Source: Naegleria gruberi
Lineage: Eukaryota
Assembly (NCBI GenBank): GCA_000004985.1
Contig: GG738856.1
Length of the DNA: 64,000 nucleotides
Direction: 5' to 3' (one strand)
The position numbers and the translations under genes are program-made. Position 1 is the stretch's first letter. The number at the start of each line of letters is the position of its first letter. Positions 5,893 to 64,000 of the stretch are shown in pieces. The notes beneath the pieces were generated by a model. It searched no databases. It saw nothing but the letters and a program-made list of their open reading frames with translations, and was not told the origin of the DNA.

Positions 5893-8063
5893 TTAATCAG
5901 TTTCTATTTCATTAATAGTTCTAAACTTGGATTGCATTGTCTTGAAGTGTTGTAATAATTCTTCTTCAAGACTCTTGTCTTCTTTTGAATTTTCTTCTTC
6001 AAGACTCTTTTGACCTGTCATTTGTATCATACAAAGGCTATTTACACACTCTAAACGTTTGCTCAATTTGGTGAAGGCTGTTGTTTGAGGTAAAAGCATC
6101 ATCAACCCATATAATGTTTTGAGGAGATAAGGGTGTTTGTGAGGCTCTAACAACTGAAGTCTCAAATCAACAAAGATTGGAGATTCCAATAATTGAACAA
6201 GATTATCGATTTGTGTTAAAAACTCCACCGTCACTTCGATTTCAGTACTTTTAAAGTAGTAAGAAAAGTGAATTATTTGTTGACAACTTACAAGCTAGAA
6301 ACTAAATAGCTTGCCAATTTGTACTGATTGGCAAGAAGGCATAAAGTAAGAGTGGCAATTGAATTGTGACACCAACTCTTAAATAAATCATGGAAAAGCT
6401 TTTGACCTTCAACAGAGCTATGGGACTTTTTAATGGAGGTTCTCAATCCTAACAATTCCTTACTGGTAAGTAAAATCATATTAAGAGTTTGGACCAGTGA
6501 TGATGTAAATTCCATATTACTTTGTTTGGTATCTAATAAGATATTTGAGAGTTCTTTGAAAATTTTCTCTGGATTGAGCATAACACTCAATTTTCTGAAA
6601 ATAAAACCAGCTTTGGTCAATAAATTATTATCATTTTGGAACATTTGAAGGAGGGACCTTAAGAACTTTTGGAAATTTTCTTCAGTGGTTGAAATAATTG
6701 CCAAAACTTGTAAATCTAGGGAAACAACATCTTCGTTAGGGTCAGATAGAGATTTCAAAAGTAATCCAAAAATAATGTCGATATGCTTCATTACACGGTC
6801 CAAATTCTTATTCAGAAGGATGTGGCACCATTTCAAAGCACAAATTCTATTAGGGATGGAAGGCTTTTGCAATTCAGTCTTGATGACTTTCATCACATCA
6901 CTGAATGAAATAGTTTGATCTGGTGTTGATTTATCCTCTATTATTCTCATAACTTCACTATTAGCTTGTGTACTGGCGTTTCTCAAATCCATTTCATTAT
7001 TGGAAATGTGTGGTAAAATAGCACCAATGACCTGTGAGTGATAAGGTAATACCTTTCTCTTGTCGAAAAGCAAAAATTTGTAAATCCAAATAATAGCTGT
7101 TTGTTTTGCAAGACTACTTCCTGGAGCATCATCACAATGAGCGATGAGAATTTTGATGAGAGGACCAAAATCAATAGAATCGTAGGAATATTCAATTTCT
7201 GTTAAAAATTCATCAAGAACTGTTTTGGCTTGATTGACTATTTCTCTATTAGGATCACTTAACATGAAAAATACGCCAGAAAGGAAATGAGGAAGATACT
7301 CAATCAGATCAATATCTGGTACAGAATCCAAGACAATAATCCAACTCAATAAAAATTGTCTAACATATGGATCGTTGGTGTTAATTCTCTTACTAAGCTC
7401 TGGAATAAATTGATCGATATTGAATATTTCATCTTCTGTCACAATATCTTTAATCAATCTATCCAAGACAACATTAGCATTTTGAACTGTTGTGTCAGGA
7501 TCTCCACTTAGTTTACACAATCCATCAAATATTACATGAAATTGTGGTATGATTTTTCCTCTTGCAATTTTAGCTACATTATACACAGCTTCGGAAGCAT
7601 GAAATCTTACTTTAGCATCTTGATCACCAAAACAACGAAGAATAGGAGGAACCAAATCTTCCAAATACTTTCCAATATCTCTATACAAAGCAATTGCACA
7701 AGATCCTAAAGCCCATAATCCTCCTTTCTTCATATTTGGCTGAATAGAGTCAATCAAGTGGATTGTCAAATATCTAATCAATTTTTTAACAAGTATTTCT
7801 CCTTTTTTTAATTTATCATCATCATCACTTGATGGTACAACAGATGTTGTTGTTGTTGATAATGTATCCGAATCAGTCAATAATAATTTCAAGACAAGCC
7901 TTTCAATTTCCTCTCCACCAATTTTTCTCTTTTCCTTTAATTTATCCGTTAAATTTCTAATCAAAGCTTGTGTGATCAGTGGAATAATTTCACTAAATTC
8001 ATTCTCTACACCCGTATTGTTTGATGGTTGATAGAGGGAGGCACTTGATGCCGAGTGTTGCAT
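5893..8063 (-). CDS. VAC14: VAC14 (PIKfyve/Fab1 scaffold) homologue, 2 exons complement(join(5893..6247,6292..8063))
   Basis: HEAT-repeat 591-aa ORF with DQDAKVRFHASEAVYNVAKIARG...VLDRLIKDIVTE, matching the Vac14 Fab1-binding region. A downstream 113-aa ORF carries the Vac14 C-terminal LLKTLYGLMMLLPQTTAFTKLSKRLECV. The two are joined by a 44-nt GTAAGT...AG intron, phase 2. Confidence 0.8.
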
Positions 8064-8388
8064 TTTTTTATTTGATGACTTGAAAGATTTTTATCTTGAT
8101 TAAAATTATTATTTATTCTTTGTTATTTATTATTTAATTAAATATTATTTGTCAATAATAATTCATTATTTATGAGTATTATTAAGAGTTCTTGGTGCAA
8201 AAATATAATCATCAATATCCAAATCGGAAAATGTCTACAGTTAGTTTGTAGCCGTTTTGGCGGGTGAATTTAATGAAGTCACAAAATAGAAAAAAATTAA
8301 AGAACATTAAGCGTGACGAGGTAGCAACCGCAAAGGAAAAAGCCGATCTCATTCTCAACGCTTCTCTCTCAATAAATTCATTCTTCTC

Positions 8389-9602
8389 ATGTCTTTTGAT
8401 GCTAGTAGTACTACGAAAAGGAGAAGTTTATCTGTACAGGAAACAAGAAATAGGCTGAGGAATACTCAGCTGAAGAAAGGAGAATTACCTGTATCTCATT
8501 CAATTCCCTCTCGGTTTGAAACAAAATTAAACTTGAATTATTCGGAGAGAAAAGGGTTCGGAACAAGCACAACACGTTTTCAAGTATTTGTGGTAGGTTG
8601 TTGAGTTGGATGTTTTTTGATTTAATTTCATGTTTGCAATAGAATGATACACTAGGACCAAATGCAACATCTTATAATATAAAACGAGAAATTAGAGAAG
8701 AAAAACCATCAGATTCAAAGAAAGGATACGGAAATTTAGCATCTCAAACAAAGAGATTTTTTGATCAACCTCGAGTTGCATTTATTACTCCAGGACCAGG
8801 TTCAGCAGAACCAAAATCATTTGTTGAGGATCGCCTTATTAAAACACCAAGTAGTAGAAAAGGAACTAGGTCATTTGTAGAACCAGTGTCCAAATCATTG
8901 AAAACACCAACATCAACAACTATGGTTGGTCCAGGTAGCTATGAAGTTGAATCACCAAGGAGAGCTCAATCAGCTAAATCATCAGTATTTGCTTCAAAAA
9001 CTGAAAGATTTGAAGCATTTAAGGGTCTATCTTCTCCAGCCGCTGTAAAAAATAGATTCGAGGATATGTTTGACCATAAGTATGAAAGAGAGCATTGTGA
9101 AGATATGCTCTACTCAAGGAAAGAAAAAAGAAATCTGTCACAATCAGTATTTAGATCTGCAACTTTCAGAGATTTCGATATTAATCCAAAATCAATGTAT
9201 GAGGAGGTCGATATTCGAGATATTAGTAAGCCAATCACTCCAAGTACTATTGAAAGAAAATCTGCTGTGGAAGATATGCAAAAAGATGGACGATCTTACA
9301 TTTTCAAGAACCACAATATGGATAGATTTGGTAACTTTGTTGGGAATACAAGGAAAAAACCAACAAAAACGCCTGCAAGTCCCCCAAGTTATTACCCTAG
9401 TTTTGATAGATTTGGTGGTAATATGGCAGAGTTGGAGAAGAAGAAACATATTAGTTCAAGCTTTTTCGTTTCGAACACTAAGAGAGATATGGATGTTATT
9501 CCAACAAATGTACCTTATCCAGGCAAATATGATACTTCACAACTATTTGCTACCGGCAATCAAAAGTCGTTTAATATGAATAAAAGTGGTATATTTCTGT
9601 AA
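8389..9602 (+). CDS. STPG (sperm-tail PG-rich repeat) family protein, 2 exons join(8389..8592,8643..9602)
   Basis: Repeated P-G-P-G-S-x-E / GPGSYEV / GPNATSYNI motifs are typical of STPG repeats. GTAGGT donor at 8593 and CAATAG acceptor at 8642, phase 0. Confidence 0.45.
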
Positions 9603-19430: not shown

Positions 19431-19523
19431 AATTCTCAAATATTTGAAGTATTCCAATAAAATTCGTGTTTTCTTTACAAAATATTCTAAATACCATTTT
19501 GCCGCCTTCCTGTTTTCTCTTGA

Positions 19524-20274
19524 TTGAAAAAAATGAGTCAACAAAGAGTTAAAGACGAAAAGCCTTCCACAACAAGTGTGAGAGCAAATTTTGTTCGGGT
19601 TTCCGATTTGCAGAAAAATGGAGGCTCTGGAATTGATTATAAGAATTTATTTGGTCACAAGAAGACTGCATCCTCTTCTTCATCATCTTCCGTAAAAGCC
19701 TCTTCTTCATCAATTGAAAAAAAGAAGCCTTCCCGATCATCAACAAGTAGTACAACAACATCAAAAACAGAAAAGAAAAAAGCACCCGTTAAAAGAAAAT
19801 ATAAATCTAGAAATTCTGAACCTGTCAAAAAGGTTGAAAAAGGTGACAAACTCAAATGGATAACAAGAAAAGGAAAGAAATATGTATCTTATAATGGAAA
19901 GAAATATAGTGGAAAAAAAGGTATAGTTAAATTGTTATACATTCTCATTAAATCATTAAGCTTTTCAAATTTACAAAGAGTGGAAGGAAGTAAATGGAGA
20001 AGCATCAGATGAATCAGACAATGAGCAATCAGATGAAGAATATGTTCCGCCAAAGAAAAAGACTAAAAAGGAACCAAAAGAAAAGAAAGTTGAAGAAACT
20101 AAACCAAAACTCAAATTAAAAAAGAAAGAAATTGACTCTCAAGCAATTACCATTGATAAATTCTTTAAAAAAGAGGCTAAAGTGGAAACAATTGAAATTG
20201 AATCGGAAGACGAAATTGAATCATTCAGTACTGGAGATGAATTTGAGGATGATGTTGTGGAAATCATTGACTAA
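19524..20274 (+). CDS. lysine/serine-rich then acidic low-complexity protein (hypothetical, nuclear-like), 2 exons join(19524..19920,19979..20274)
   Basis: ORF 19524.. followed by GTATAG donor at 19921 and AG acceptor at 19977-78, phase-1 consistent. Acidic tail to stop at 20272-74. Confidence 0.4.
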
Positions 20275-20285
20275 TTTATTATTGA

Positions 20286-23453: not shown

Positions 23454-23779
23454 TTTTTATGGTGTTTAAAATCGTTTACTTTTTTACAATCCAACTTGCT
23501 CCAGTCATTTTATCAATATTAAGTTTGTTAACAATAAGAAATATTAAATACTTTTCATTCTCTGTTAATACCAAGTAAATACTATTCTCTTGCTATCCAA
23601 TATCTCATGTTGTATTCAACAAATAATTGGTGGTCGAGTTTGGATGTTATGACCGCTACTTTGGTTTCTTCCTGGCTCTTGTTGAATCCCAACAAACAAC
23701 CGTTAAAAAATATTGAGAGTCAAAAGTTGTCGACTCGAGCGCGAACAACACGCAAGAAAAACACAGGGAAAAAATAGCA

Positions 23780-26700
23780 ATGACAAGCAAGAAGAAGAAG
23801 GCTTCATCTTCGTCATCAACAACATCGTCATCACATGAAGAGGAATCATCAACAACAAAAAATAATATTATGGAGGATGATGCGGGTACTTCTAGTAATA
23901 ATAACAACAACAAGAAACACAAATCAAGTAAACGTAAAAAAAATTCTGATGAAAGTGTAGTGGATGAAGTAAAAAAGACACCTCTCAAAGTGAAAATTAA
24001 ACTGGGTGATACTGAAACAACAGTAGATCCTCTCGAACCTGAAAAGAGAAAGAAGAAGAGAGAATCTAAAAAATCCGATCAAAAATCACTTGTTTCAACA
24101 CTTATTACCCTTTTGGACAAACTTTTCAAGGCAGATAAGAAACAGAACTTCTGGTATGCTGTTCCCGAAAAAGAAAAACAGTACTATCAAGTCATTGATA
24201 ATCCTATGGATTTATCTTCAATTCAAGCAAAATTACTTCTTGGAAAGTACTCTTCAATTGGTAAATTTAGACAAGATCTAGACATTATTCACAACAATGC
24301 AGAAAAGTTTAATGGACAAGCTTCCCCAATTTTCAAGGCTGCAGAAAGGTTGAAATCAATTTATACAAAAGAACTTTCAGCTTACTCCGATTCGGATCCA
24401 ATAGTAACACCTCTCACAAATGACGATAGTACAGTAGAAGAATGTATGATACAGATTATAGATGCTCTTAAATATGAAGATTCTTATTCCATTTTCCATG
24501 AACCAGTCCCAAAGGAAGTTCCAAATTACTATGAGACTATCAAAAAACCAATGGATTTTGCCACTTTGAAGAAGAAGGTGACAGATCATAAGCTTTCCAT
24601 TTCTAAGTTTGAAAAGTACATGTTACGTATTTTTTCTAATGCAACAAAGTTCAACCTTCCAGATACTCTCTACTATGCAGAAGCTGTAAGAATTTCAAAA
24701 CTTTCTACTGAGCTGGTAGAGAAGCTTAAATCAAAATTCTCCTCTGAATCAAAACCAACTGTCACTATCACTGTAAAGGAGCCGCAACCAGAAGAGAAAA
24801 AAGAGAAAAAGTCAAAGAAAAAGAAAGAAGACAAAAAAGTCGAGAAGGAAGAAAAAGAAAAGAAATCAAAGAAAAAGAAAGAAAAAGAAGAAAAAAAGGA
24901 AGAAGTTAAAGTAGAACCTATTGTAGAAGAACCTTTTATTGATTTGAATGATACAGGATCTATGAGCGACGATGTTAAAACACCTAAGAAATCTTCCTCT
25001 GATAAAAAGAAAACTCCTAAGACAAAATCGACTACAAAATGGAAGGATCGTGTACGTATTACAGACTTAGATTTTCCAGATTTGGAGGACACACCTTTGT
25101 ATTCTCTTCTTGAATTAGTTTGGAAAAAACTAATGTCTATAGACGAATATTTAATATTTAAAGATCCTGTATCCAAAGATGTACCAAATTACCATAATAC
25201 AATTAAAACCCCAATGGATTTAACAACCATTAAGGGAAAAATAGATGATAAGAAATATACTAAGTGGCGAGAATTTGAAGATGATGTTGATCTTGTATAT
25301 GATAATTGCAAAACTTTTAACTCTCAAGATTCTATATATTCAAAAGAAGCTAACAGACAGCATAGATGGTTCAGAAAATGGAAGAAAGATATGGTGACTC
25401 ACTTTGGCAAGATTGAGGTTGCCGATCTTTCTGAAAAAGTTGTTTGTGACTATTTTAACGAGATATCTGTTGTTAAGACACACGCACCAAAGTATGATGT
25501 TACTCTTTTGAATACAATGGAAGAAGCAGAAGAGGAGACAACATTACCAAAAACTTCTCTTTGCTATCACCTTCTCAAAATTACAGAAGAGCTTAAAAAA
25601 CACGACAAGAACAAATACTTTTGGGAGAGTGTTGACGAAAGCGTTCATCCAAACTATAGTAACCAAATCAAACATTCTATTTGTTTATCAATGATAGCCA
25701 GTAATTGTAACAACAAACATTACAAGACTATTGATCAATTTATTAATGATATTGATCTCTTACATACTAATACTTCTACTTTCTTCTCTCCAAACTCTAA
25801 AGAAGCAAAAGAATCAAAAGCCTTATTGAATCTGGCTAAAGAAAAAGCACAACCTTTGAGAATTAAGACTTTCAAAGATGGTCCAACTTCTGCCAATAGT
25901 TCCAGTACAAACACTACAACACCAAAAACAAGGAGAGAAACTAGGGCATCAAGTTCACTTTTGGATGATATTGATAATTTTCTTGATATGGATGAAAAGG
26001 ATGATTTATTATCTAATGTGAAATCCGATAAAAAGAAGAAACCTTTAGCAAGTGCCTCTAAACCAAAAAGACGAAGACCAGTAAGCACTGCTGCAACAAA
26101 TCCATATAATAAGGATATTGAATTAGGATGGGTGCCACATATTCATAATTGTGCATACTGGCAATTCCCATCCTATTTGCCTGATCCTAATCCAGAAAAT
26201 AGACCTAAATCAATTGAATCCAATCATGATGCAACTCAATCATTCATTGATCCAGCATCCCTATCTAGCTCGTACAGTAGAGGTGATGATGAATCAAACT
26301 CATCTCAAGATGAAAGTGCTCCAAAACCAAAGAAAGAGAAAAAAGAAAAGGAAAAGACTCAAAAAATCACTTCCAATTCATCCGACATTGTTATTCCACA
26401 AAACATTTCAACATCAAAAACACCTAAGACCACCAAGAAGGAAAAGAATGTCACTATTCCACACACACCAACCTTAAATATCTCAGTTCCCCCATTCACC
26501 TCACCAAATTTATTCTCTCAATCAGCCACTGGTTCTAAATCAACTGCTCCACCTCAGGTTGTACATTTAACTACTGTTGAAAATAGACCACTTCCAAAGT
26601 ATTCCTATATCATCAAAAAGTATCGACAAAATTTATCTATTAACAAACCTAAAATTGATTTGAATCAACTCAAGACTATGAATCTTTCGGATTGTATGAA

Positions 26701-27612: not shown

Positions 27613-27688
27613 GACTTCATTGTAAAATACTCATATGCCTAGGCAACCTCAAAAATTAAAAATTTGTTTCGAAAAAAAATAGAACACA

Positions 27689-28090
27689 ATGACCGCCGGA
27701 AAGACTTCTATCAAGGTTAGACAATTCTTCACTAACAGACTTTTGAACAGAAAGCAATTCGTTGTTGACATCCTCCACCCAGGTCAACCATCCCTTTCTT
27801 CTGCTCAATTGAAGGAAAAGTTGGCTGAACAATTCAAGGTTGCTAACCCACAAACTATCATGTTGACTGGTTTCAAGACTAAGTTCGGTGGTGGTAAGAG
27901 CTCTGGTTTTGCTAACATCTACGATTCCATCCAAGATATCAAGCTCGTTGAAGCCAAGCACAAGTTGGCTAGAAACAAGCTCATCACCCTCAAGAAGGAC
28001 GGTAGAAGATTGAAGAAGGAAAAGAAGAACAGAGCCGCTGCTGTTCGTGGTAAGGAAAAGACTAAGGTCAAGGGTGCCAACAAGAAGTAA
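27689..28090 (+). CDS. RPS24: 40S ribosomal protein eS24
   Basis: MTAGKTSIKVRQFFTNRLLNRKQFVVDILHPG...IMLTGFKTKFGGGKSSGFANIYDS. C/G-ending codon preference is typical of highly expressed genes. Confidence 0.9.
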   Translation: MTAGKTSIKVRQFFTNRLLNRKQFVVDILHPGQPSLSSAQLKEKLAEQFKVANPQTIMLTGFKTKFGGGKSSGFANIYDSIQDIKLVEAKHKLARNKLITLKKDGRRLKKEKKNRAAAVRGKEKTKVKGANKK

Positions 28091-31400: not shown

Positions 31401-32568
31401 TCTTTAATATATATTTACAGGAAATCAAAATAGTAGTAGTATTATTTACAATAATCTCTCTGAATCAAAATCACACACGAGAGCAAGAAAACCTAATAAT
31501 TGTCGTATAAGGTGCAAGTTGTGCCAGATGGTATCTATTGTGCCTCTGTCTTTTTTTAGATTTTTGAATACAAAACACAGGCTTCGAATCAGCACGACGG
31601 TAGTCTAGAGCAATTTCTAGGTTGTTTTTTCTTTTTTGAAAAATTCAGAGACAACACCACCTGATAACCATCCGAATTGCATCAACAACAGTAACTTGTT
31701 GGTAGAGGTGATGCACATTCCTTTTGGTATTTAACGAGACAATTATGAATTGGGAGAATCCAATCAATCGAAAAGACAAAATTGAAGCACTTTGCTTGAT
31801 TGGTCTTGATTGCATCACACAATTGATCCAGTTTTTACGAATTGAGATAGTTTAATGCTGAGAAGGTTTCTAATGTCAAGTTCAGAAAACATCTCAACAA
31901 ATTCAAATACAAAGATGGTTTCTAAAAGACTCTTTTAGTTTAACACGAACACTTTGGCATAAAGGCCATCATTGGTAAAGATATATTGTTTTGAACGTTA
32001 TGAAAAAACTGTTTGAATTACAGTTTGAAATGAGGTGAGAGTTCAAACGAAACTGATCGAATCGTATACAAAATACTTTGAACGGCTTTTTGGTACTAAA
32101 ATGATACACCAATACTACACAGAGATATTTGTTGCATTTGAGATGTTCGTTTCAATATTGAGTGTTCTTTATCCAATTTTCCATTCTTCTGAAACCTATT
32201 CTAATAACTCATTGTAAAGTGAGTTGATATTATTGAGAGTTAAAATGTTAACAACTACTAGAATATTAGTTAGTCTGCATTTAGGCATTTTATACATTTC
32301 TTCACAACCATCGTTATTTACATTTTTGTGTTATGGTGTTATCTAGGTGCAATGGTTAATTATCTTTTGGAGAATATTAAGAATGAAAATGCAATTTAAT
32401 AATCAATTCTTACCAAGTAAGTAGAATGTTACTCTTGAATGGAAGCACCTTTGACGACTCCACTGTAAAGTTAACTCTTTGGATTTACAGTTTTTTAACA
32501 GGAGGATAAAGAGACTGTGAAAATAAGAAACCTTTATGTCTGAAAAATTTCAAATCAGGTGGTGTTGG

Positions 32569-32608
32569 TTTAGCGCCTAAACTTTCTTCGCGCCAAAAGT
32601 TTCCCGCC
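32569..32608. promoter_or_regulatory. cluster of E2F-like motifs (TTTAGCGCC, TTCGCGCCAAAA, TTTCCCGCC) 50-90 bp upstream of kinesin-14 ATG
   Basis: Matches to TTTSSCGC in an otherwise AT-rich leader. GCGC is rare elsewhere in the window. Confidence 0.4.
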
Positions 32609-32657
32609 TTCACAAAAATTAATCAGTTAACATTTTTAAAACAACCACACAAAAAAA

Positions 32658-34157
32658 ATGTCTCAACTTCCATCATCTGCCCAGAGCAACATTTCCATCG
32701 ATTTTAACGATCCTCCAATCGGCCTTGAACAATCATGGCTCGAAGAAAATAGAGACAGTCGTGAAGGACATACTCTTCTTAAATCATTAATTATTGATCA
32801 AATTAATCAAATTCCGGTTGCTAACTTTAATCTTGTTCTTCAACAGTGCAGAAATAGAACAAGTGATGGAGTGAGTTGCCATCTTTCCCAACAAATTGAA
32901 TTATACAAACAAGAGATTGACAAGTTGATTCAAGAAAATCAACGTGTTAGTAAACAATTACACAAGGAGATGAAACTCCGTCAACAATACTTTAACGAAT
33001 TGCAATTGTTGAAAGGTGCCATCAGAATTTTTGTTAGAGTCAGACCATTGCTGACACATGAAATTCAACAAGGAGACTTTACAGTACTCAGATTTTCAAA
33101 GACAAATCCACAAACTCTTTTCCTTCCAAAAGTTTTACAAGAAACACAACCAGAAGATAAGATTACCAAACAAAGCCATAGACAATTCCAATTTGACAAG
33201 GTATTAGGACCTAATGTTCATCAAAAGATGTAAGTGATTATTGATTTTAATTTATATTAATATTTACATTTGAAATATAGGTTATATGACGAAGAAATTT
33301 CACCACTAACTAAATCAGTTCTTGATGGCTATAATGTTTCTATCTTTGCTTATGGTCAAACTGGTACTGGTAAAACTCACACAATGCAAGGAAATGGAGA
33401 TGAAATTGGTATTCAACAATATATTTTACAAGATTTATATAATCACAAGAATAAGGATAAGGATATGTATAATATGACAATTGCATTGAGTTGTATGGAA
33501 ATTTACAATGAAACTTGTATTGATTTACTCAGAAGTCAAGATAACAAATTAGAACTCAAGATGGATCCACAAAATAAGAAAATTATTGCTCAGGGATTAA
33601 GAGAAGTAGTTTGTAATGAATTACAGGAAGCTTTGCAATGTTTGATTTTCGCTCAAAAGAATAGAGCTGTTTCATCTACAAGTCAAAATCATAGATCCTC
33701 AAGATCTCACCTTATTGTGCAAATTTCTGTTTGCAAAATGTTCCTTAAACACCCAGAAGCTAACAGTGAAGAAGAACAACAAAATATTACGCCAACCTGT
33801 ACAACATCTCAAATGTACTTGATTGACTTGGCTGGTAGCGAGAAGATCAACACCAGTGGTGCAAGCAATCCAATTACTGACAGTGAAACAAAACATATTA
33901 ACAAATCTTTATCTGCTCTTGGCAATGTTATGGAAGGATTAAGAAACAGAAGTGCTAAACCTGGACAAAATGCTCACATTCCTTACAGGGATACAAAATT
34001 GACATACTTTATGAGTAATGTTTTTAGAGATAAGCACTCGATATGCTGTATGATTCCTCACGTTGCTCCAAGCTCTTTATGTTTCAATGAATCTTTGAGA
34101 ACACTTCAATTTGCTGAAAGAATGAGTGGAATAGCTCTTAACAATGTAAATCAATAA
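32658..34157 (+). CDS. kinesin-14 (C-terminal motor, KAR3/Ncd/KIFC-like), 2 exons join(32658..33229,33281..34157)
   Basis: Neck GAIRIFVRVRPLL, P-loop GQTGTGKTHTM, switch II LIDLAGSE and HIPYRDTKLT. GTAAGT donor at 33230 and ATATAG acceptor at 33280, phase 2. Confidence 0.85.
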
Positions 34158-39648: not shown

Positions 39649-39693
39649 ATATTACTTCAATTCTTATGAAATGAATTTATTCGATATGTTAAT

Positions 39694-39708
39694 TTTGGCG
39701 CCATTTTG
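39694..39708. promoter_or_regulatory. palindromic E2F-like site TTTTGGCGCCATTTT about 30 bp upstream of ORC2 ATG
   Basis: TTTGGCGC core on both strands. Confidence 0.4.
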
Positions 39709-39736: not shown

Positions 39737-41086
39737 ATGAGCGCCAATAACACACTCACTATCAGCAATTTAATTTTTGTTGGTGATGAGGATGAATCTT
39801 TACAGGATAGATTTAACAAGATTGATCCGAGTATTCTGACTAAATATTCACGAGATTGTACCTTTAAAGAATATAGGCTTGTGGATTCGGATGATATTAC
39901 ATTGGATTCGGAGAAGGAAGATAAATTCTTCTCCACTCCTTTTGAACAATACAATTTACAGAAATTAATTAAAAAGACTAAAACATCGGCCAGTGATAAG
40001 GTTGTAATTTCGTTGGAAGATGTTGATTGTACAATTCCTTCTCATGATGACAAGTATTTTGAACCTGTTTCTTTTAAAACTAAAAGTGATAATTTAGTAT
40101 TGGAACGAGTGAATGAATGGATGCACTGTTTGAGATGTGATAATAATTTATTATTTTATGGATTAGGATCAAAGATTAATCCACTGAATCAATTAATGTA
40201 TTGCATGAAGGAAAGTGATGTGAATAGTTTCTTTGCAATTGTTTGTGGATATAATCCTGAAATTACAATCGGAATAATGTTGGATGACATTTTAAAGACA
40301 CATCTGAAAGAGAAGAATACTAAGAATTTATCATATGTGGAGAAAGTGGACACAATTATAAGAATAATGAATCAACGTAATGAATTGGCCAAACCTTTAC
40401 CTGATGATGAATTTGGTGATTTTGCAGAATTTATGAAAGATGAAGAGCCATCTACAAAACATGCCAAACAACATTTGTACATTTGCATTCATAATATTGA
40501 TGGACCAGGCCTTCGTTCTAAATCCACTCAACATTTACTCTCTGTTCTATCAAGTAATAGATATATTCACTTGATTTGTAGTGTAGATAATCAATTATCA
40601 AATTTATTATGGGAACCCTCAATTGAAGACAAGTTTGGCTTTATGAGATTCAATATTACCAACTTTTGTACATATTTTGCTGAATCTGAATATTACTCAT
40701 TACAAGATTTGTACAATGAATCATCTGATGGAAAGAAGAGTAGTGAAGAGAAATCACTTGGACCAGTTGAAATTGTTGCCAATATTTTAAAGTCAGCAAA
40801 CAAGAAACACAGACAAATTTACATGATTATTTGCAACAAATTTATTGAAAATGAAAAGTACAATGAATCGGAAGAAGGATCTAGCCAACCTAAACCTAGT
40901 GGCAGCACTCATCAAGAAATCAAATCTTCTATGGGTGTTTATTCAACAGATGATGCCTTGCTGAGAGATGGTTTGTCATATCTGGAAAATCAAATTAAGG
41001 TTATCAAGAAGAAGCAAAATACCTTTATTCCGACCTTGAAGCGAAATCAATGTGAAAAACTCTTGGTCATATTAAACAATTCATAA
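39737..41086 (+). CDS. ORC2: origin recognition complex subunit 2
   Basis: LLFYGLGSK...IHNIDGPGLRSKSTQHLLSVLSSNRYIHLICSVDNQLSNLLWE matches the ORC2 C-terminal domain (VHNIDGPMLR...IASIDH.NAPLLWD). Confidence 0.8.
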   Translation: MSANNTLTISNLIFVGDEDESLQDRFNKIDPSILTKYSRDCTFKEYRLVDSDDITLDSEKEDKFFSTPFEQYNLQKLIKKTKTSASDKVVISLEDVDCTIPSHDDKYFEPVSFKTKSDNLVLERVNEWMHCLRCDNNLLFYGLGSKINPLNQLMYCMKESDVNSFFAIVCGYNPEITIGIMLDDILKTHLKEKNTKNLSYVEKVDTIIRIMNQRNELAKPLPDDEFGDFAEFMKDEEPSTKHAKQHLYICIHNIDGPGLRSKSTQHLLSVLSSNRYIHLICSVDNQLSNLLWEPSIEDKFGFMRFNITNFCTYFAESEYYSLQDLYNESSDGKKSSEEKSLGPVEIVANILKSANKKHRQIYMIICNKFIENEKYNESEEGSSQPKPSGSTHQEIKSSMGVYSTDDALLRDGLSYLENQIKVIKKKQNTFIPTLKRNQCEKLLVILNNS

Positions 41087-53951: not shown

Positions 53952-54010
53952 GATTTTTGTACAACAGAATAGGCAAACAGACTATCAGTCAATTGGAATA
54001 ATACCACCTG

Positions 54011-55516
54011 TTGGTAGTCCTAAAACTTGAAATTAACAAGTCAATCAAGAAATTAAACATATTTCAATCGGATTTGAAGATACTAAAAATTCTAAGTGAA
54101 ATGACAAGATTTAATTCCTCACTTGAACGTTTAATAAACATTATCAAGCCTAATTATTATTTGTTTACAAAAAAAATGATCAATAAGAAATCTCATCATA
54201 AAAAGCCTTTTGATCATCGTAATCATGATCATGATAATACAATAGATCATGTTCCGATGATGGTAGGTGAAAAATCACTACTTGAAATAGGTTCCGATTG
54301 TATTTTGGAAATATTTAAATATCATGTTGAAACATCTGATGATATTTTAGTATTATCACATACATGTTCAGATTTTAAACAATTAATTAATACAAATACG
54401 GAAATTTGGACTTGTAAAATTAAATCAATATTTAAAAGAAAGGCTTTACAATTTCAAAATTTCAAAGTTAATAGAGTTGATTTGTTAAATCAATTTTTAT
54501 TAAATAATTTAACAGATAATTATTATTTACTTCCAGAAAAGGAAGTTTATCAATTTTCTAAAAAAAATGGTGGAGAATTTATTAATATGATTACAAATAC
54601 AAATGATTTAATCAAGTATTTTAAATATGAAAAACAAGTTGAATCTGATTTTAATAATAGAAATTTCATTTATTCCAAATTAGGAAATCTATTTGAATGG
54701 ATTCAAAGAATTTTTATAATCTTATTTTGTATTTATATTTCATTCCAAGAATATTATGTGGTCATGAAAACAGCATTAGATTTAAATATATATAGTTGGG
54801 TTAAATATTCTGATTTAATTATTTATACTTCTCTAATTTTGGAATCTTTAATTATTTTTATAGATGTTTTTATTTTGTGCTATTTTAGTGAATTTATTTT
54901 AAATATTAAAAAATCCATTAAAAGAGCCTATTCAAAAATTACATACACGCGCAGATATAAAATTATAGTACTCATTCTAATTCTATCAATTGCATCATTA
55001 TTTATTAGAATTATGTTTTATTTTAATAATGATAGTGATGGTTCTCTTTTACAAGAACGTAGAAAATATTATAATGAATTGGATTTGGAAAATGCAAATA
55101 TTTTACAAAGATTTCAATTAGGTGTATTTAATGGTGAAGAAATATTTAGATCTTTAATTAACAATTTTAATTTATTACTTTCAATTCCATTGGCTTTTGG
55201 ATATTATGAAGCTTCTAAATTTTTAACGGAATTTAATACTTTATTTGTTTTTGGAGTGGGAATTTATTTACAATTATTTACTTTGATATTTTTTACTAAT
55301 ATTTTAACTCCTATTTTAGCATTTGTTATTGCTATATTAGGAGGATATTATTATAAGTATGATATTTCTAATTGGAAAAAAATATTATCAATTGCAACAT
55401 CACATTTATTTGCTTATTTGGGATTTTCATCATTTTATATATTTTTACCACATGTAATTTATTTTACTATTTGTGAGAATACTGGTCATGGAAGTTCAGA
55501 GGATATAAATTTTTAA
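54011..55516 (+). CDS. F-box-like domain fused to multi-pass transmembrane region
   Basis: LLEIGSDCILEIFKYHVETSDDILVLSHTCSDFKQLINTNTEIWTCKI, then at least 6 hydrophobic helices in the C-terminal 280 aa. Confidence 0.45.
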   Translation: MVVLKLEINKSIKKLNIFQSDLKILKILSEMTRFNSSLERLINIIKPNYYLFTKKMINKKSHHKKPFDHRNHDHDNTIDHVPMMVGEKSLLEIGSDCILEIFKYHVETSDDILVLSHTCSDFKQLINTNTEIWTCKIKSIFKRKALQFQNFKVNRVDLLNQFLLNNLTDNYYLLPEKEVYQFSKKNGGEFINMITNTNDLIKYFKYEKQVESDFNNRNFIYSKLGNLFEWIQRIFIILFCIYISFQEYYVVMKTALDLNIYSWVKYSDLIIYTSLILESLIIFIDVFILCYFSEFILNIKKSIKRAYSKITYTRRYKIIVLILILSIASLFIRIMFYFNNDSDGSLLQERRKYYNELDLENANILQRFQLGVFNGEEIFRSLINNFNLLLSIPLAFGYYEASKFLTEFNTLFVFGVGIYLQLFTLIFFTNILTPILAFVIAILGGYYYKYDISNWKKILSIATSHLFAYLGFSSFYIFLPHVIYFTICENTGHGSSEDINF

Positions 55517-56354
55517 TTTTATCGTTTCTGGATAGAAGAACTTTGATTGTGGTTGTAATAAGGCAAGTAGTCGTTTGGTAGAACTATTCGAATAAATTGA
55601 ATGGTTGATGAGTGAGGACTGTTACAAAACATGTTACTATCACAAGGATCCTTGACAGTATGTAATATTTCTCACTAACACATCTGATGCTTCAATAATT
55701 GTGAGCCACTTTTCATCCCAAATATTCTATTAAATTCATTATCATCCCAACAATTTGTTTCAAAAAAACTGTAGATCAAATGAGTAAAACCCATTTCATT
55801 GTATTTTGATATGGAGACTTTACAATGAAATCTATTCAAGAGACTCTTTTATTTCAGATATGATACTACTTACAAGTTGGAGATACGCTCAACTTGTATT
55901 GAAATAATTAGATTTATTAGCAATAATACCTTCAATTATTAGAAAGATTGACTTTTTCCTTTTTAGTATTGACACAATTCCGCTTGTCATTTTACAATGT
56001 GCACCAATCAGAGTGTTACATTTTTCAGTACAAAATATATTTAATATTATTATACAATCAGATACTTCACTCTGCTGAACCTAACTTTCGTTTCCTTTCA
56101 CACTGAATCGAACTAATGTTTAAATTCTAACATAAAAATCACCAATGTCACTACTATTTCAGCTTCAGTGGAAGATTCTACTTCAGTTGAAAATTGACGT
56201 CTTTATCGGCAATGGTTTTTTGAAAAGGGAAACTTTTTTCAAAGCCTAAAAAAAATCGCTTGACATTAGACTGAAACAATTTCAGTGATTTACAAGCAAT
56301 CTACCTCAACACCACTCTAATAACAGTGAACCAAACTAATTACTTTGAGAGTAA

Positions 56355-58449
56355 ATGTATTATAATAATATGATGGCAACTACAACATCAACTGAAGAAC
56401 ATGATATATTTCAATATCATTCTAATTTTCAAATTCTATCCAATGGAAGTAAATCAACAACAACAACTTCACCTAACAAACAACAACAACCTTTAAATTC
56501 TACCGATACTACTATTACTACTACTAACGATACATTATCATCTCTATCAACTGATAATATACCAATGGCTATTTCACCCTCCTTGTTATCGGTAGAAGAT
56601 TCTACAACAGTCTACAGTACAAGTTGTAATGATTCATCACTCATGATGGATCAACAATCTTCATCATCACTCGTTTCTTCATCCATTATAAACTCAACAA
56701 TATCTAATAATAATAATATTAATAATAATATTAATAACAATAACAATAATAACAATAATAATAATATTAACGGTTCAATTCCACTAATAACACTCAACCA
56801 AGAACAAAATGGTTCAGATCATGATGAATTAATTGATGTACATAGTTCATCATCCCCTAATCAATCACCTTCACATTCAACTGGAACACCGACAGATGAA
56901 GATTCGTTTACCTTCTCCAATTTAAATTGTTCTAATAGAAGTATTAATATTGCAATAACACCAACAACAAGTTTAAATGATTTAACTGTGGAATCATCAA
57001 GTGATTCATTATTATTATCAGATAATTATTCATTACAATATCCTCAATACTATTCTAATCAGACAGATCCTAAAAATTTACTTTTCCAATATTGTGTTGA
57101 GGGAAAGGAAGATTTATTTATTGAATTGTTAAAAGAACAAATTGAATCACCAAATCAAACATTGGGAAATTCATCACTTGATGCTAATAGAGTTTTAACA
57201 AGTCAATTCATTTATCATGATTTTGATAAATGTACTCTATTTCATTTATCAAGTAAATTTAATAGAGTCAATTCAATGGAGAAAATGTTGGAATATTTAC
57301 CTTCAATTTTAACATTTAAAGATTCAAAACAAGCTAATTGTTTATTTTATGCAGTTTCTAATAATTCAAAAGAAGCTTGTGCTCTAGTTTGTAATTATTA
57401 TTCAATGATAAATGGTTTATCAGATAAGAAATTTACAAATGAATTAGACATGTATGGTAATTGTTGTTTATATTTGGCAATGCAAAAATCTTTTTATGAA
57501 TTGGCTGATTTACTTTTATTATTTGGTGCTAATATTGATATTAGTTTTAAAACAGGTGAAACAATGTTACATAGAGCTATAACAGAGAGAAGATTAGATA
57601 TTGTTGAATATTTATCAAAGAAGGGTGCAAATTTATTGAAACAAAATCAAAATAATGTAAGTAGCTTTTTTTTTACCATTACTGGAAAGGTATTTAATCT
57701 TTTTGAACTATGTGTTGATTTTAAAATGTCAATTGATAATTGAACTATTTGTTGATAATTGATTCAATTGATTTATATCTTCTATAATATAATAGGAAAA
57801 TCCATTATTTAATGTATTTGTTCATCAGAAAAAGAAGGAAACCAATGTAAATACAAGTCAAGATAGTATCAATAGTACTGGTAGTAATGGTGGTAATAAC
57901 AAGACACCAACAAGTTTAGAATCACCAACTCATAGTGCACCACTCTTTTCATCAAATAATTCAAATTTCTGTAGAAATGGAGCTCTATTTTTACAAAATC
58001 TATTGAAAAGTAATGCATTTTCAAGTGAAATTATAATGAAAGGATTAAAACAAAAGAATTCTCATGGACGTACAATGTTTCAAGAATGTATTGTAAAAGG
58101 AGATTTACCAAGTTTTAAAGTACTAGTTGCCTATTTAACAACAAGAGAAAATTCAGAACAAACTCTTTCATGGTTTGTGAATGATGTTGAAAATCAAAAA
58201 CAAAGAACTTCACTTCATTTATCAGTTGCTTACAAACAATTTCACATGTGTAAGATTCTAGTTGATGCCATTCCAGGTATTGCTAAATTAGATACACTTG
58301 ATTCTGATGGTAAAACTGCAATGGATTTGGCAAGAGAAACAAATCAGGAAAATACCATTCAATTTTTCAATGAAATTCAACAATTACAGAAAGAAAAGAA
58401 AAGTTCTGGATTTGGTTTTAAAAAATTATTTAGAAGACTGAAAAAGTAA
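56355..58449 (+). CDS. ankyrin-repeat protein with Asn-rich N-terminus, 2 exons join(56355..57656,57796..58449)
   Basis: GTAAGT donor at 57657 and AATAG acceptor at 57795, phase 0. ANK repeats in both exons (TMLHRAITERRLDIVEYLSKKGANL, TSLHLSVAYKQFHMCKILV). Confidence 0.6.
56695..56790 (+). repeat. coding (AAT)n / (AAC)n microsatellite giving poly-Asn
   Basis: Inside the ankyrin gene's N-terminal exon. Similar tracts occur at 3768..3810, 59462..59590 and 62985..63075. Confidence 0.7.
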
Positions 58450-58611
58450 ATTGTACATATTTTGTAAACTTACTATTATTATTGAAATAATAATAATAAT
58501 GGATCTCATACAACAACAACAACAACAACATTATCAAATAATTTATCATCATCAACATCATCAACATCAACAACAATAACATTACAAAGTGCTCAACAAT
58601 TTTTCAAAAAT

Positions 58612-60390
58612 ATGAAAAAGGGTAAAATTGATATTGTAGAACAAATGTTAAAAGAGAATATAAATTTTCTAATGATACGAGATGTAGATGGAAGTACAGC
58701 ATTAATTAAAGCAGCATCTAAAAATTTAGTAAATTTTGTAGATTTATTTTGTAAATATAGTAGAGATAACAAACTTGGATTTAGTTGTTTAGATTTAACT
58801 AATAAGGATAGATATACAGCAATTAATATAGCAGTTAAAAAACAAAATATTCAAGTTGTAAAATTATTATTATCATATAATGCAGATATAACAAATACAC
58901 CAAATAAGGATGGTAATTTACCTATACATAGTGCGAGTAGACGTGGATTTACAGATGTTATTTCAATTTTAGTAAATTATGATATAAAACAATTAAATAT
59001 AATGAATCCATTAAATAATAGAACACCTATATTTATGGCAGCACAACATGGTCATTTAAAAACTGTTGAATGGTTTTTAGATCAAGATGGAATTGATTTA
59101 TCTATAAAAAGTTGTGATTACAAAAGACCAATACATTCAGCTGCATCACATGATAATTTAGATGTTTTAAAATTATTATTAGAAAAAGGACGAGAAAATA
59201 TTAATGTTATTACAACAAATGAAACTGATAAGGATAAAAGATATACTCCAATGCATTATTGTTGTAAAAAAGGTGCTTTAAAAACTGCTAAATATTTATT
59301 AGAAAGAGGTTCTCTATTAGGAATATTCATTTTAAATGCTCAACATGGTTATTTTGGTAAAAAAACACCTCTCTATTTAGCTGTTCATGGTAAAAAGGAT
59401 GAAATTGTTGAATTATTTTTAACTTATTATAAAATTATTAATGAAATGATTAATGAAATTGAAAAATCAGAAGAATTAATTAATATTAATATCAATACTA
59501 GTAATATCAATACTAGTAATAATAATACTAGTAATAATATCAATAATAATGATAGTAATAATAATAATAATGAATCTAAAAATTCAAATGAAAATGAATC
59601 AAGAATATTTAAAAAAATTGAAAAGTATAACAAATTTTCATTAGATTTAAGTTTAATTTATAAAACGTTAAATGAATATTTAAAAAAAGAAGATATTCAA
59701 GCAATAATATCAGATCCATCAAGTGAAAATTCAGGAGATTCAGATAATGATAATGCTGATGATTTCCAAAGAAACGAGGAAAAGAAATTATCAAGTGATT
59801 ATAAAAGAGTTACAAGATCAATTAAAAATGTTATACAAATTGCAACTTCAGAAGAGAATCAAGAATTAGTACATTTATCATTTTCAATTGTTCATTTTGA
59901 TATTGTAAAAGTGTATTTAGAATATTTCCCAGAATTATTGAATTGTAAATCAACTTCAAATGGAAATACATTAATTAATAAGGCAGCACATATTGGACAT
60001 TTAGAAATAATGAAATATTTAGTTTCAAAAGGAAGTAATATTTCAATACCAAATGATGTTGGTAATAGACCTATTCATAGAGCTGCGTATTGTGGACATT
60101 CTGAAATTGTTAAATTTCTCGTTGAGGATTGTGGAGAAAAGGTTGATGTATTTCAACATTCAACTCCAAAAACTAAACGGTTAGAAACATCTCTACATTT
60201 AGCTGCTAGAAAAGGTTGGATTGAATGTGTTAAAATTTTACTTTTAAATGGTTCTGATATTACACTTGCTACTAAGAGTGATAATCCAAATGGAAGAAGA
60301 GATGCACTTCAATTATCTAAGAGATATAATCAATTCCTTGTTTTTGATTTTCTTGAAAAGGTTTTCCAGAGAGTTACTCGATCTTATTAA
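58612..60390 (+). CDS. ankyrin-repeat protein (at least 10 ANK repeats) with Asn-rich insert
   Basis: Repeats such as NRPIHRAAYCGHSEIVKFLV and TSLHLAARKGWIECVKILLLNGSDI. Confidence 0.7.
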   Translation: MKKGKIDIVEQMLKENINFLMIRDVDGSTALIKAASKNLVNFVDLFCKYSRDNKLGFSCLDLTNKDRYTAINIAVKKQNIQVVKLLLSYNADITNTPNKDGNLPIHSASRRGFTDVISILVNYDIKQLNIMNPLNNRTPIFMAAQHGHLKTVEWFLDQDGIDLSIKSCDYKRPIHSAASHDNLDVLKLLLEKGRENINVITTNETDKDKRYTPMHYCCKKGALKTAKYLLERGSLLGIFILNAQHGYFGKKTPLYLAVHGKKDEIVELFLTYYKIINEMINEIEKSEELINININTSNINTSNNNTSNNINNNDSNNNNNESKNSNENESRIFKKIEKYNKFSLDLSLIYKTLNEYLKKEDIQAIISDPSSENSGDSDNDNADDFQRNEEKKLSSDYKRVTRSIKNVIQIATSEENQELVHLSFSIVHFDIVKVYLEYFPELLNCKSTSNGNTLINKAAHIGHLEIMKYLVSKGSNISIPNDVGNRPIHRAAYCGHSEIVKFLVEDCGEKVDVFQHSTPKTKRLETSLHLAARKGWIECVKILLLNGSDITLATKSDNPNGRRDALQLSKRYNQFLVFDFLEKVFQRVTRSY

Positions 60391-60634
60391 TATTGTCATC
60401 TTTCATTAATATTTGTTGAGATAATATTAGTGATATATTAGTGAATGATATATTGAATGATATTATTTTTAAAACTAAATTAACGTAATATTTTAACTGA
60501 AATCAAATGAAATAATACAAATAATAATACTATTTGTAATGGTATTATTAAAAAATTCAATAATTTGATTAATGATGTAAAAAAAGAAATGATATATTAT
60601 TAATAATAACCATTATAATTGTACAAATAAAATT

Positions 60635-61129
60635 TTAATTCTTAATCTTGTTCATTGCTTGATATTTTTGAATATCAAACCAAACCTTAAATAAATCACG
60701 TGTACCTAAAGCAAAAACAGAATTTGCTCTCAAATATAAATATGGTGATCCACTCAATTGAACAAGACATGGATAGAATGTATTTTCAAATATTGGTTTA
60801 CAAGGATCATTTTCAGGTGATTCTGACATGGCTTCCGATGGTGATTTTCCGTCTTTCTTTTCATTTAAACATTCTTTATATTTTCCTAATTGTGGTCCAC
60901 AAGGAGTATGTGGGGCATGAAGAAAACAATAAGAACACAAATACTTGTCTTCTTTCTGTATTAAATCTTCAGCAGTAACTAAAGGATATATTCTTCCGTT
61001 AACATCAAATTTATTCTTTAACACTTCTGGTCTAAATTGTGCAAGTGTCTTCAAGGCTTGTTGTCTTCTTTCCTCTTCCAATTTCCTTTCTTCCTCAGCA
61101 GCTGATAATGATTTGTTTGATATTGGCAT
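60635..61129 (-). CDS. hypothetical small Cys-containing protein (164 aa)
   Basis: ORF with coiled-coil-like N-terminus and a CSYCFLHAPHTPC...C...C segment. No family recognised. Confidence 0.35.
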   Translation of the reverse strand: MPISNKSLSAAEEERKLEEERRQQALKTLAQFRPEVLKNKFDVNGRIYPLVTAEDLIQKEDKYLCSYCFLHAPHTPCGPQLGKYKECLNEKKDGKSPSEAMSESPENDPCKPIFENTFYPCLVQLSGSPYLYLRANSVFALGTRDLFKVWFDIQKYQAMNKIKN

Positions 61130-61269
61130 TTTTTTAAATGTTATTTATTTATAAAAAAGCAATCAATTTCTATTGAATAGAAAACAAAGCCTTTTTTTTC
61201 ATCGTCTGTCTGTTACTATTGGATGATCATTATTTTGAGGAGCAGTAGTAGAAGATAATAATAATAACA

Positions 61270-64000
61270 ATGGATTTTGAATCATCACAACATTTAAATA
61301 TTCATTCTTCGGAAGAGGATTTATCATTGATCAGTGAATCAAGTGGTAATAATAATAATAATAACAATATCAGCAGCAACAGTAGTAGTAGTAGTGGTAC
61401 TATTAGTAATATTAGTAGTACATCAGATATTATTGGAAGTATTACTTCATCAAAAACAACTGATAACGAGGTTTTTGAAATTAGAGATTTCTCAACACTT
61501 TCATCATGGGAAAAGTATGTTATGATCAATTATCATCATCAATAATTTAATAATCATCATATTTAAATAATAATATTATAGATTAATAGATAAATTTGAA
61601 CAATTAATATTAGCATGGTTTAATAGATTTTCCAATTTTCAATTTACACCCACTGAAACATTCTTCTATAAGAGTCATATCATTCAATTTAATGGAACTA
61701 AATATTTATTTTCATATTATAATTTTAATCAATCATCTTTATCAGAAGAAGAACATGATCATCAAATAGAAAAGGATTTTCTTCATAGATCTCATCATTT
61801 AACTAGATGGTTTGGAGTTAAAGAATTTTTCATCATTTCTTTATATAACAATAATAATAATAACAAGCCTTCATCTTTATCACCATTTCATTCTTATCAT
61901 CATTCTAATAATAATAATAATTCATCCAATAATAATTCTAATAATTCATCTCATAATAATTCAAATAACATTTCAATTCAATCATCAACAAGTTTATCAT
62001 CTGCATTATCAGTTTCATTATCAAATTTAAATAAGAATGAAATATCATATTTTATATTATTAAATAATGAATGTTTAAATTATAATGGAAGATTAAATTC
62101 TAAAAATAATCAAGTTACTAAATATAAAAGTGAATCTTTATATGAAAAACAATTAAATTCTTCATATATAACATCATCTTTAATGAAATTAAGTGGAATG
62201 ATTGATTTATTTTGTATAAATTTAGGTAAACATATTAGAATTACAAATGAATTAACTATTAAATCTAGATATACATTTATATTACCATATTTAAATAGTA
62301 AAGAATGGTTAAAAATTAAAGATGATTTTAATTTTACAAAAAGTGAAAGAAATTTATTATTTACAATTGGTACAAAACAAGATCCAATTAAAAATTTTCA
62401 CTTTTCATGTATTTTTAATTCTATAAATATTAATGAACCAAATATAGATAATTTAAATATTAAAAATGCACATTTATGGGAATTAAAATTTAATCAATTA
62501 AAATTAAATGAATTTGAATTATCATCAAAATTAAAATTATTTATAAATAATATTATTTTAAATAATGAAAATGATAATACTTCCAATAATGGAAATAATT
62601 TATATATAAATGAAATAATTTATGATATATTTGAAACATTATCAGATGAAACATTTCAAATTAAATCAAAGTTATTAAATGAAAAACAAGAAATTAAATC
62701 ATGTCAACCTAATAGTTTATTAAGAAGATTTTGTGATCACATTTTAAGAATTAAATCAAAACAAGATTTAAAATTATTATGGAAATTATTTATTAAAGTT
62801 TTATTTAAATATTGGGAAGAATCAAATATAAATGATTTAATTAATGAATTTCCATTAAATATTTCATTCATTCCTTTTACAAATCAAAATGTTAATTGGT
62901 CAACTTGTTTAATTGAACAAAAAATTGACATGTTAAATATTTGTTGTTTAAAACAAATTGAAATTTTAAAAAATAATTTTAATTTAAATAATAATAATAA
63001 TAATAATAATAATACAAATAATACAAATGATAAGAATACTGAAAATAATAATATTAATATTAATAATAATACTGATAATAATAATGATAATATAAATGAA
63101 AAAGAATTTAATAATAAAAAAGATGAACAAGTTGAAGAAGAAGAAGAATGGAAAGATTCAGGCTTTGAAATATTATCAGATCATGAAAGTGTAGATTTAG
63201 ATGAAGAATATTTTGAAATTGAAAATGATGAAAATTTAGAATTAAAAGAAAATATAATTAAAATTATTGAAATTTCACCTGGTAAGGAAATTAAAATTCC
63301 AAAAACACAAAATCCACCACAAAATACAGAAGATGTTATTGAGGAGGAACGTGAAATTTTATCAAATATGATTTCATCAGATCAGAGAATTAGATTTCAA
63401 TGTGAAGGTTTAATTTCTGATATGCAAGCTTTTAAAGTATGTTATTTAATATTTTACAATAATATATTTAATAATACTTTACAATACTTTACAATAATAT
63501 ATTTAATAATATATTTAATAATAGTTTGTTAATCCTGGATGTGAATTTTCTGATTTTTTATTATGGTATTCACCTAAAGATGTTAAAGATGAAAATTTAA
63601 GTTCAAGAATGAAAATGAATGAAAATATTTGGAAGAAATTTTGGGAAGAATCAAAGCCTTTACCAATTTCAAAACAAAAACAAATTTTTGATCACAAATT
63701 ACAAGCAGAAAAAATTATACATCAAATTGAAACTATGGATTTTGATATTATTTTACAACAGTATGTAATAATATATTAATAATTTACAATAATATTATTT
63801 AATATTATATAATATTTAAAATATAGATTAATGATATGTACATTAACAGGACATTATTACATGTTAAAAGAATGGTGGATTGATTTAATTATGGATAGTA
63901 CAGATATATTTAGTAATGAATTTAAACAAGTTGATAAAAAATTAGATTTAAATTTACCTTTAATTAGAATTGTAGAAAGTAAATTTTTAAAAACAAAAGA
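61270..64000 (+). CDS. RAB3GAP1: Rab3 GTPase-activating protein catalytic subunit (RAB3GAP1) homologue, partial (3' end beyond window), exons join(61270..61514,61582..63436,63525..63760,63827..>64000)
   Basis: NEVFEIRDFSTLSSWEK|LIDKFEQLILAW matches SEVFEITDFTTASEWERFISKVEEVLNDW. Also HHLTRWFGVKEFFIIS, LNICCLKQIE and RIRFQCEGLISDMQAFK|FVNPGCEFSDFLLWYSPKDV match conserved Rab3GAP catalytic-subunit blocks. GTATGT donors, ATAG acceptors, consistent phases. Confidence 0.8.

Follow-up and report, generated by a model that had tools for sequence, protein, structure and literature searches.

A cluster of E2F-like boxes conserved upstream of a kinesin-14 gene of Naegleria gruberi

Within the 64,000 nt of nuclear DNA from Naegleria gruberi contig GG738856.1 studied here (GenBank assembly GCA_000004985.1, hereafter the window), a short run of GC-containing motifs lies in the AT-rich DNA directly upstream of a kinesin-14 gene, which raises the question of whether these motifs are E2F sites, and to which programme they would connect this microtubule motor. 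Three motifs close to the TTTSSCGC consensus had been placed 50–90 bp before the ATG in a first-pass annotation of the window; the positions hold, with the cluster located 50–89 nt upstream of the ATG, whereas only two of the three are strict matches (32590–32597 on the minus strand, TTTGGCGC, and 32600–32607 on the plus strand, TTTCCCGC), and the distal box TTTAGCGCC has one mismatch. The middle box was also present, albeit one base off the implied 32588–32599, as the sequence places it at 32587–32598 (Table 1), and it nearly equals TTTCGCGCCAAA, the E2F site of the mammalian DHFR gene. The figure of about 75% AT given for the leader was a fair approximation, with 66% AT before the cluster (32400–32568) and 80% AT after it (32609–32657), versus 50% in the 40-nt cluster itself.

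Table 1. Coordinates in the window of the kinesin-14 and ORC2 genes, their upstream elements and further box-bearing promoters
Feature	Position	Strand	Remarks
Distal E2F-like box TTTAGCGCC	32569–32577	+	One mismatch to TTTSSCGC; specific to N. gruberi
Middle E2F-type box TTCGCGCCAAAA	32587–32598	both	Overlapping inverted site; minus strand reads TTTGGCGC
Proximal E2F-type box TTTCCCGCC	32600–32608	+	Contains the exact match TTTCCCGC
YTCA(N)AAAA element TTCACAAAAA	32609–32618	+	Abuts the proximal box; putative initiator or transcription-start region
Myb-core CAGTTA (TAACTG on minus strand)	32624–32629	-	Counterparts at about L001:9970–9975, L003:2430–2435 and L002:9970–9975
Kinesin-14 exon 1	32658–33229	+	Acidic N-terminal tail, coiled coil, start of motor
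Kinesin-14 exon 2	33281–34157	+	Motor domain and stop codon
Palindromic E2F-type site TTTTGGCGCCATTTT	39693–39707		30–44 nt before the ORC2 ATG; palindromic TTTTGGCGCC at about -40
ORC2 CDS	39737–41086	+	449 aa; Pfam RecA-like_ORC2, 4.6e-39
TTCGCGC heptamer	23739–23745	-	35–41 nt before ATG 23780 of a four-bromodomain protein (1158 aa)
Box TTTGCCGCC	19498–19506		At about -30 of a Lys/Ser-rich orphan gene at 19533
E2F-like box TTTTGGCGGG	8255–8264		Spacer between the Vac14 ATG at 8063 (-) and the SHIPPO/STPG-repeat ATG at 8389 (+)

The gene downstream of the cluster is a kinesin-14, as had been proposed: removal of a 51-nt intron (GTAAGT...TAG) gives a CDS of 482 aa with a Pfam Kinesin match of 1e-80, in which Kinesin and Microtub_bd cover residues ~190–480, and the product has the coiled-coil stalk followed by a C-terminal motor that defines this family. 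The top homologs were C-terminal motor kinesins (KIFC and KIN-14), and the nearest annotated distant relatives were of the KIFC3 type. Exon 2 was 100% identical to XP_002679701/EFC46957 ("kinesin, partial [Naegleria gruberi]"), a public model of 283 aa which lacks the N-terminal exon; the alignment of orthologs supports the 482-aa product, with QSNISIDFNDPPIGLE near the N-terminus also being kept in the orthologs, so that the boxes are rightly measured from the ATG at 32658. The spacer upstream of the gene (31401–32657, 1.26 kb) is free of ORFs and corresponds in syntenic position to a 590-aa gene in N. lovaniensis, of which no remnant was found in the N. gruberi spacer by tblastn.

Five kinesin-14 paralogs have been described in N. 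gruberi, all of them regulated; mitosis induces two and flagellate differentiation the other three (Kennard et al., bioRxiv 10.1101/2024.01.08.573270), so that the earlier description of the gene as a classic cell-cycle-regulated gene is an assumption in the case of XP_002679701. A negatively charged tail was reported for one of the five paralogs, a mitotic one (bioRxiv 10.1101/2024.01.08.573270). The first 75 residues of the kinesin described here have a net charge of -4, which is a hint as to the class of paralog rather than an assignment.

The TTTSSCGC motif was found five times in the window against an expectation of 0.84 from dinucleotide-preserving shuffles (n=100), none of which reached five, and the shorter TTSSCGC was found nine times against 1.9 expected. 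Six of the eight distinct TTSSCGC sites were located between -100 and +15 of a start codon (binomial P = 6e-7), with these zones around the start codons of long ORFs representing 5.4% of the window. Taken with the conservation described below, the shuffles exclude a chance origin of the boxes. Among ~65 promoters surveyed, those of ORC2 and of all the kinesin-14 orthologs have the motif, and most of the remainder lack it. Looser matching with SSCGCS adds two boxes, TTTTGGCGGG in the spacer between the divergent Vac14 and SHIPPO/STPG genes and TTTAGGCGGG before an F-box gene, and off-consensus boxes among the promoters include TTTGCCGCC, TTTAGGCGGG and the distal kinesin-14 box. The bromodomain, F-box and orphan genes and the Vac14/SHIPPO spacer bear boxes and have no obvious role in the cell cycle, which weighs against a cell-cycle reading of the motif.

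The strongest evidence for the kinesin-14 boxes is conservation at the sequence level, which spans three independent lineages of heteroloboseans. The orthologous loci compared were those of N. lovaniensis (L001, 75% protein identity), an ENA contig (L003) with a motor 89% identical to that of N. lovaniensis, and Willaertia magna (L002, 59% identity), and in all three further genomes E2F-type boxes are located 40–72 nt before the orthologous ATG. The promoter of N. lovaniensis has TTTTCGCGCC (L001:9933–9942) together with TTCCCGC, that of L003 has TTCCCGC together with CCGCCAAAAAA, which is degenerate and has no TTSSCGC match, and that of W. magna has TTCCCGCC together with GCGCCAAAAA (L002:9958–9967), with TTTTCGCGCC, CCGCCAAAAAA and GCGCCAAAAA being the counterparts of the middle box. 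All four promoters have TTCCCGC itself, at 48–72 nt from the ATG. No counterpart of TTTAGCGCC was found in the three orthologous promoters, and this makes it the weakest of the three boxes. Two scans of metagenomes for further kinesin-14 orthologs returned just one unrelated kinesin (32% identity).

Upstream of the boxes the alignment between the orthologous loci is lost, and downstream of them the three Naegleria sequences have a block in common, TTCCCGC-YTCA(N)AAAAA-...-CNGTTA. In N. lovaniensis the middle box has the opposite orientation, and in Willaertia the boxes have changed places; these differences in orientation and order argue for orientation-independent sites in DNA, and not for an RNA element. 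Outside the four promoters, 15 distinct TTSSCGC sites were counted in 207.7 kb of heterolobosean DNA, a background of 0.0087 per 120 bp, from which the Poisson probability of two or more sites in a single promoter is 3.7e-5; the 21.5 kb from Willaertia contain no TTSSCGC sites other than the two in the promoter. The kinesin-14 boxes are thus very probably real promoter elements, and of a familiar kind.

Two other elements accompany the boxes. The first, TTCACAAAAA, has counterparts in N. lovaniensis (TTCTCAAAAAA) and L003 (CTTCAAAAAA), and among 65 upstream regions from heteroloboseans (including L001, L004 and L005) 13 contain its pattern YTCA(N)AAAA, often directly before the ATG. The pattern may be characteristic of initiators or leaders in Naegleria. 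An A-run (AAAAAAATG) precedes most of the true start codons. The second is a Myb-core, with TAACNG present at -26 to -34 in all four orthologous kinesin-14 promoters versus 4 of 61 other promoters, which suggests that it is a second conserved element beside the E2F-type boxes.

The presence of E2F and DP homologues in the genome had been named as a check on the E2F reading, and the source data of Medina et al. 2016 (PMC4862756, supplementary file 4/6) do contain NgruE2F, NgruDP, a DEL/E2F7-like protein (NgruDEL) and NgruRB. Pfam searches confirmed the first two, with E2F_TDP and E2F_CC-MB domains in NgruE2F and E2F_TDP and DP domains in NgruDP. NgruE2F matches N. gruberi protein P0127, and N. 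lovaniensis, N. fowleri, Willaertia and Acrasis have orthologs of it. When its DNA-binding domain was aligned with that of human E2F4 (E2F4-DP2-DNA structure 1CF7), a stretch of 24 residues was identical and the recognition helix was the same as the E2F4 helix, and from established structural knowledge NgruE2F is therefore expected to have the same sequence specificity as E2F4. Autoregulation of the E2F gene was also considered and is unsupported, with no box within 400 bp in its own promoter in N. lovaniensis, and in Willaertia only an ambiguous TTGGCGC located 47 nt inside the called CDS.

The similar motif that had been seen before ORC2 in the same window is also there, and takes the form of a palindrome; an additional GCGCCAA heptamer is located just inside the CDS (39741–39747). 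The encoded protein was 100% identical to NAEGRDRAFT_88227, and the public ORC2 model (296 aa) is shorter than the product of 449 aa, which is supported by the alignment of orthologs. A second Naegleria lineage (ENA contig L006) has TTTGGCGCC 30–38 nt before the ORC2 ATG, whereas N. lovaniensis and N. fowleri, in which the spacer between the genes has shrunk to 20–30 bp, have no ORC2 box, showing that turnover of E2F-type sites does occur.

In the properties of E2F sites that can be examined in silico, namely the consensus, the excess and position of the motif, the presence of cognate factors and conservation, the cluster agrees with E2F sites throughout, and the boxes are probably functional E2F-family sites that link the kinesin-14 gene to proliferation. 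The core promoter of this gene would thus contain a pair of E2F-family sites, plus a third, lineage-specific site, bound by an E2F-DP heterodimer and/or a DEL/E2F7-like protein, directly upstream of the conserved YTCA(N)AAAA as probable mark of the transcription start. If the sites work as their animal and plant counterparts do, E2F-DP would occupy them under modulation by the RB homologue and so tie kinesin-14 transcription to cell-cycle progression, and the gene would then be co-regulated with replication genes such as ORC2. That E2F binds here, where transcription starts, whether the effect is activating or repressing, and that the output is linked to mitosis are inferences from these data.

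As the main alternative, the boxes may be real E2F-family sites that serve the differentiation of amoebae into flagellates, with this kinesin-14 being a differentiation-induced paralog, which we consider rather unlikely. Animal multiciliated cells do provide a precedent for such a role, as they use E2F4/5, reused cell-cycle transcription machinery, for de novo assembly of basal bodies and microtubules. The KIFC3-type identity of the closest annotated distant relatives and the presence of TTTTGGCGGG ~130 nt upstream of the flagellar-type SHIPPO/STPG gene (which has an intron around 8590–8642) also favor a role in differentiation; however, the box in front of the SHIPPO/STPG gene is common to the divergent Vac14 gene, and the same motif precedes the replication gene ORC2. 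Differentiation is the sole inducer of three of the five paralogs in N. gruberi (bioRxiv 10.1101/2024.01.08.573270), and no transcription factor for cilia genes is known for Naegleria, which is without RFX, FOXJ1 and XAP5 (PMC12183034), but the acidic N-terminus of the protein described here points the other way, since the sole negative tail reported belongs to a mitotic paralog, a mapping which is putative.

The conserved elements could also be bound by another factor recognising GC boxes, for instance a protein of the zinc-finger or CXC type, with the likeness to E2F sites being coincidental, and this we consider improbable. Some of the promoter boxes (TTTGCCGCC, TTTAGGCGGG and TTTAGCGCC) are off-consensus and the ORC2 box is not conserved everywhere, which favors such a factor, but the two conserved kinesin-14 boxes are exactly the two canonical variants of the E2F half-site, and their T-run or A-run is on the side expected of E2F. 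Palindromes such as TTTGGCGCCA and TTCGCGCCAAAA are also a usual form of E2F sites, and the cognate E2F has an unchanged recognition helix. Fungal MCB and SCB elements (ACGCGT and CRCGAAA, read by MBF and SBF) are G1/S motifs that also contain CGCG, and GGCGCGAA on the minus strand of the cluster is SCB-like, but Medina et al. 2016 (PMC4862756) found this factor family, like Whi5, to be limited to fungi, and neither element accommodates TTCCCGC, which puts the fungal reading out. Least probable by far is that the GC-rich run is a chance cluster, or that it works in the RNA as a structure or translational element of a 5′ leader. The boxes could be transcribed, but the DNA motif is kept while their orientation and order vary from species to species, the Rfam matches were sub-threshold chance hits with none at the gathering threshold, and chance is excluded by the shuffles and by conservation.

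E2F sites in animals and plants occur both as overlapping inverted sites, as in the DHFR promoter (TTTCGCGCCAAA), and as tandem sites, as in the promoters of E2F1, p107 and the plant ORC, MCM and PCNA genes. The N. gruberi cluster has the same TTTSSCGC consensus, palindromic and tandem arrangements and a location tens of nucleotides from the presumed start, and N. gruberi further resembles these systems in having such a site at a gene for an ORC subunit, in the presence of E2F, DP and RB, and in a recognition helix identical to that of E2F4. Unlike the classical E2F-site genes of animals, the putative target here is a kinesin-14. Animal kinesin-14 genes mostly belong to the G2/M class and are controlled via CHR elements. 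The combination of E2F-type boxes with TAACNG at a spindle-type motor gene resembles the DREAM and Myb-MuvB systems that control G2/M genes (CDE/CHR in animals; MSA elements with MYB3R and E2F-RBR in plants), with the Myb core being TAACTG or TAACAG here versus AACGG in the plant MSA. We note the doubtful but specific possibility, based on the promoter sequences, that the boxes and the Myb-core form a DREAM- or Myb-MuvB-like module which may switch on a set of microtubule genes used only in mitosis, a set that would comprise the mitotic tubulins, kinesin-5, kinesin-14 and kinetochore genes. A CDE/CHR tandem as such, in which a CHR (TTYGAA) follows the CDE by ~4 nt on the same strand, was not found, as the TTCAAA/TTTGAA hexamers in the four promoters are at variable positions and orientations, without this canonical spacing.

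To our knowledge, cis-regulatory evidence for E2F is scarce beyond animals, plants and a few algae, and no E2F cis-element of Heterolobosea (Discoba) was described in the literature searched. An unchanged E2F helix and selectively kept TTTSSCGC motifs in a discoban amoeba suggest that the code by which E2F reads DNA has survived the deepest divergences among eukaryotes. We also know of no transcription factor or promoter element assigned to the mitotic or flagellate microtubule gene sets of Naegleria, which RNA-seq has shown to be turned on as whole sets for either mitosis or flagellate differentiation (bioRxiv 10.1101/2024.01.08.573270). The boxes, the Myb-core and the initiator-like element together are a concrete candidate for the control of these gene sets; the mechanism is as expected, which makes the finding useful, rather than surprising.

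Several features of other promoters and genes were also recorded. The promoter of the four-bromodomain gene (23700–23780) has a CCGTTA Myb-core at -80 and TTCGCGC at -38, and thus pairs the two elements in the way seen upstream of kinesin-14. The Lys/Ser-rich orphan consists of two exons (19533–19920 and 19979–20276) encoding 227 aa, with a Lys/Ser-rich basic N-terminal part, an acidic C-terminus and a sequence QAITIDKFFKK loosely like a PIP box, and has no Pfam family. The GCCGC variant of the box preceding it is the same as that of TTTTGCCGC in Willaertia, located 42 nt before an MGMT-type DNA-repair gene (L009:15211–15217; Pfam DNA_binding_1). The region upstream of the gene for ribosomal protein S24e (27640–27690) contains a palindrome, TGCGCTTAGCGCA, which contains GC and is not E2F-like. 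Finally, the GC content of the window drops from ~32% to 15–25% toward the 3′ end (54000–64000), a region with ankyrin-repeat and F-box genes.
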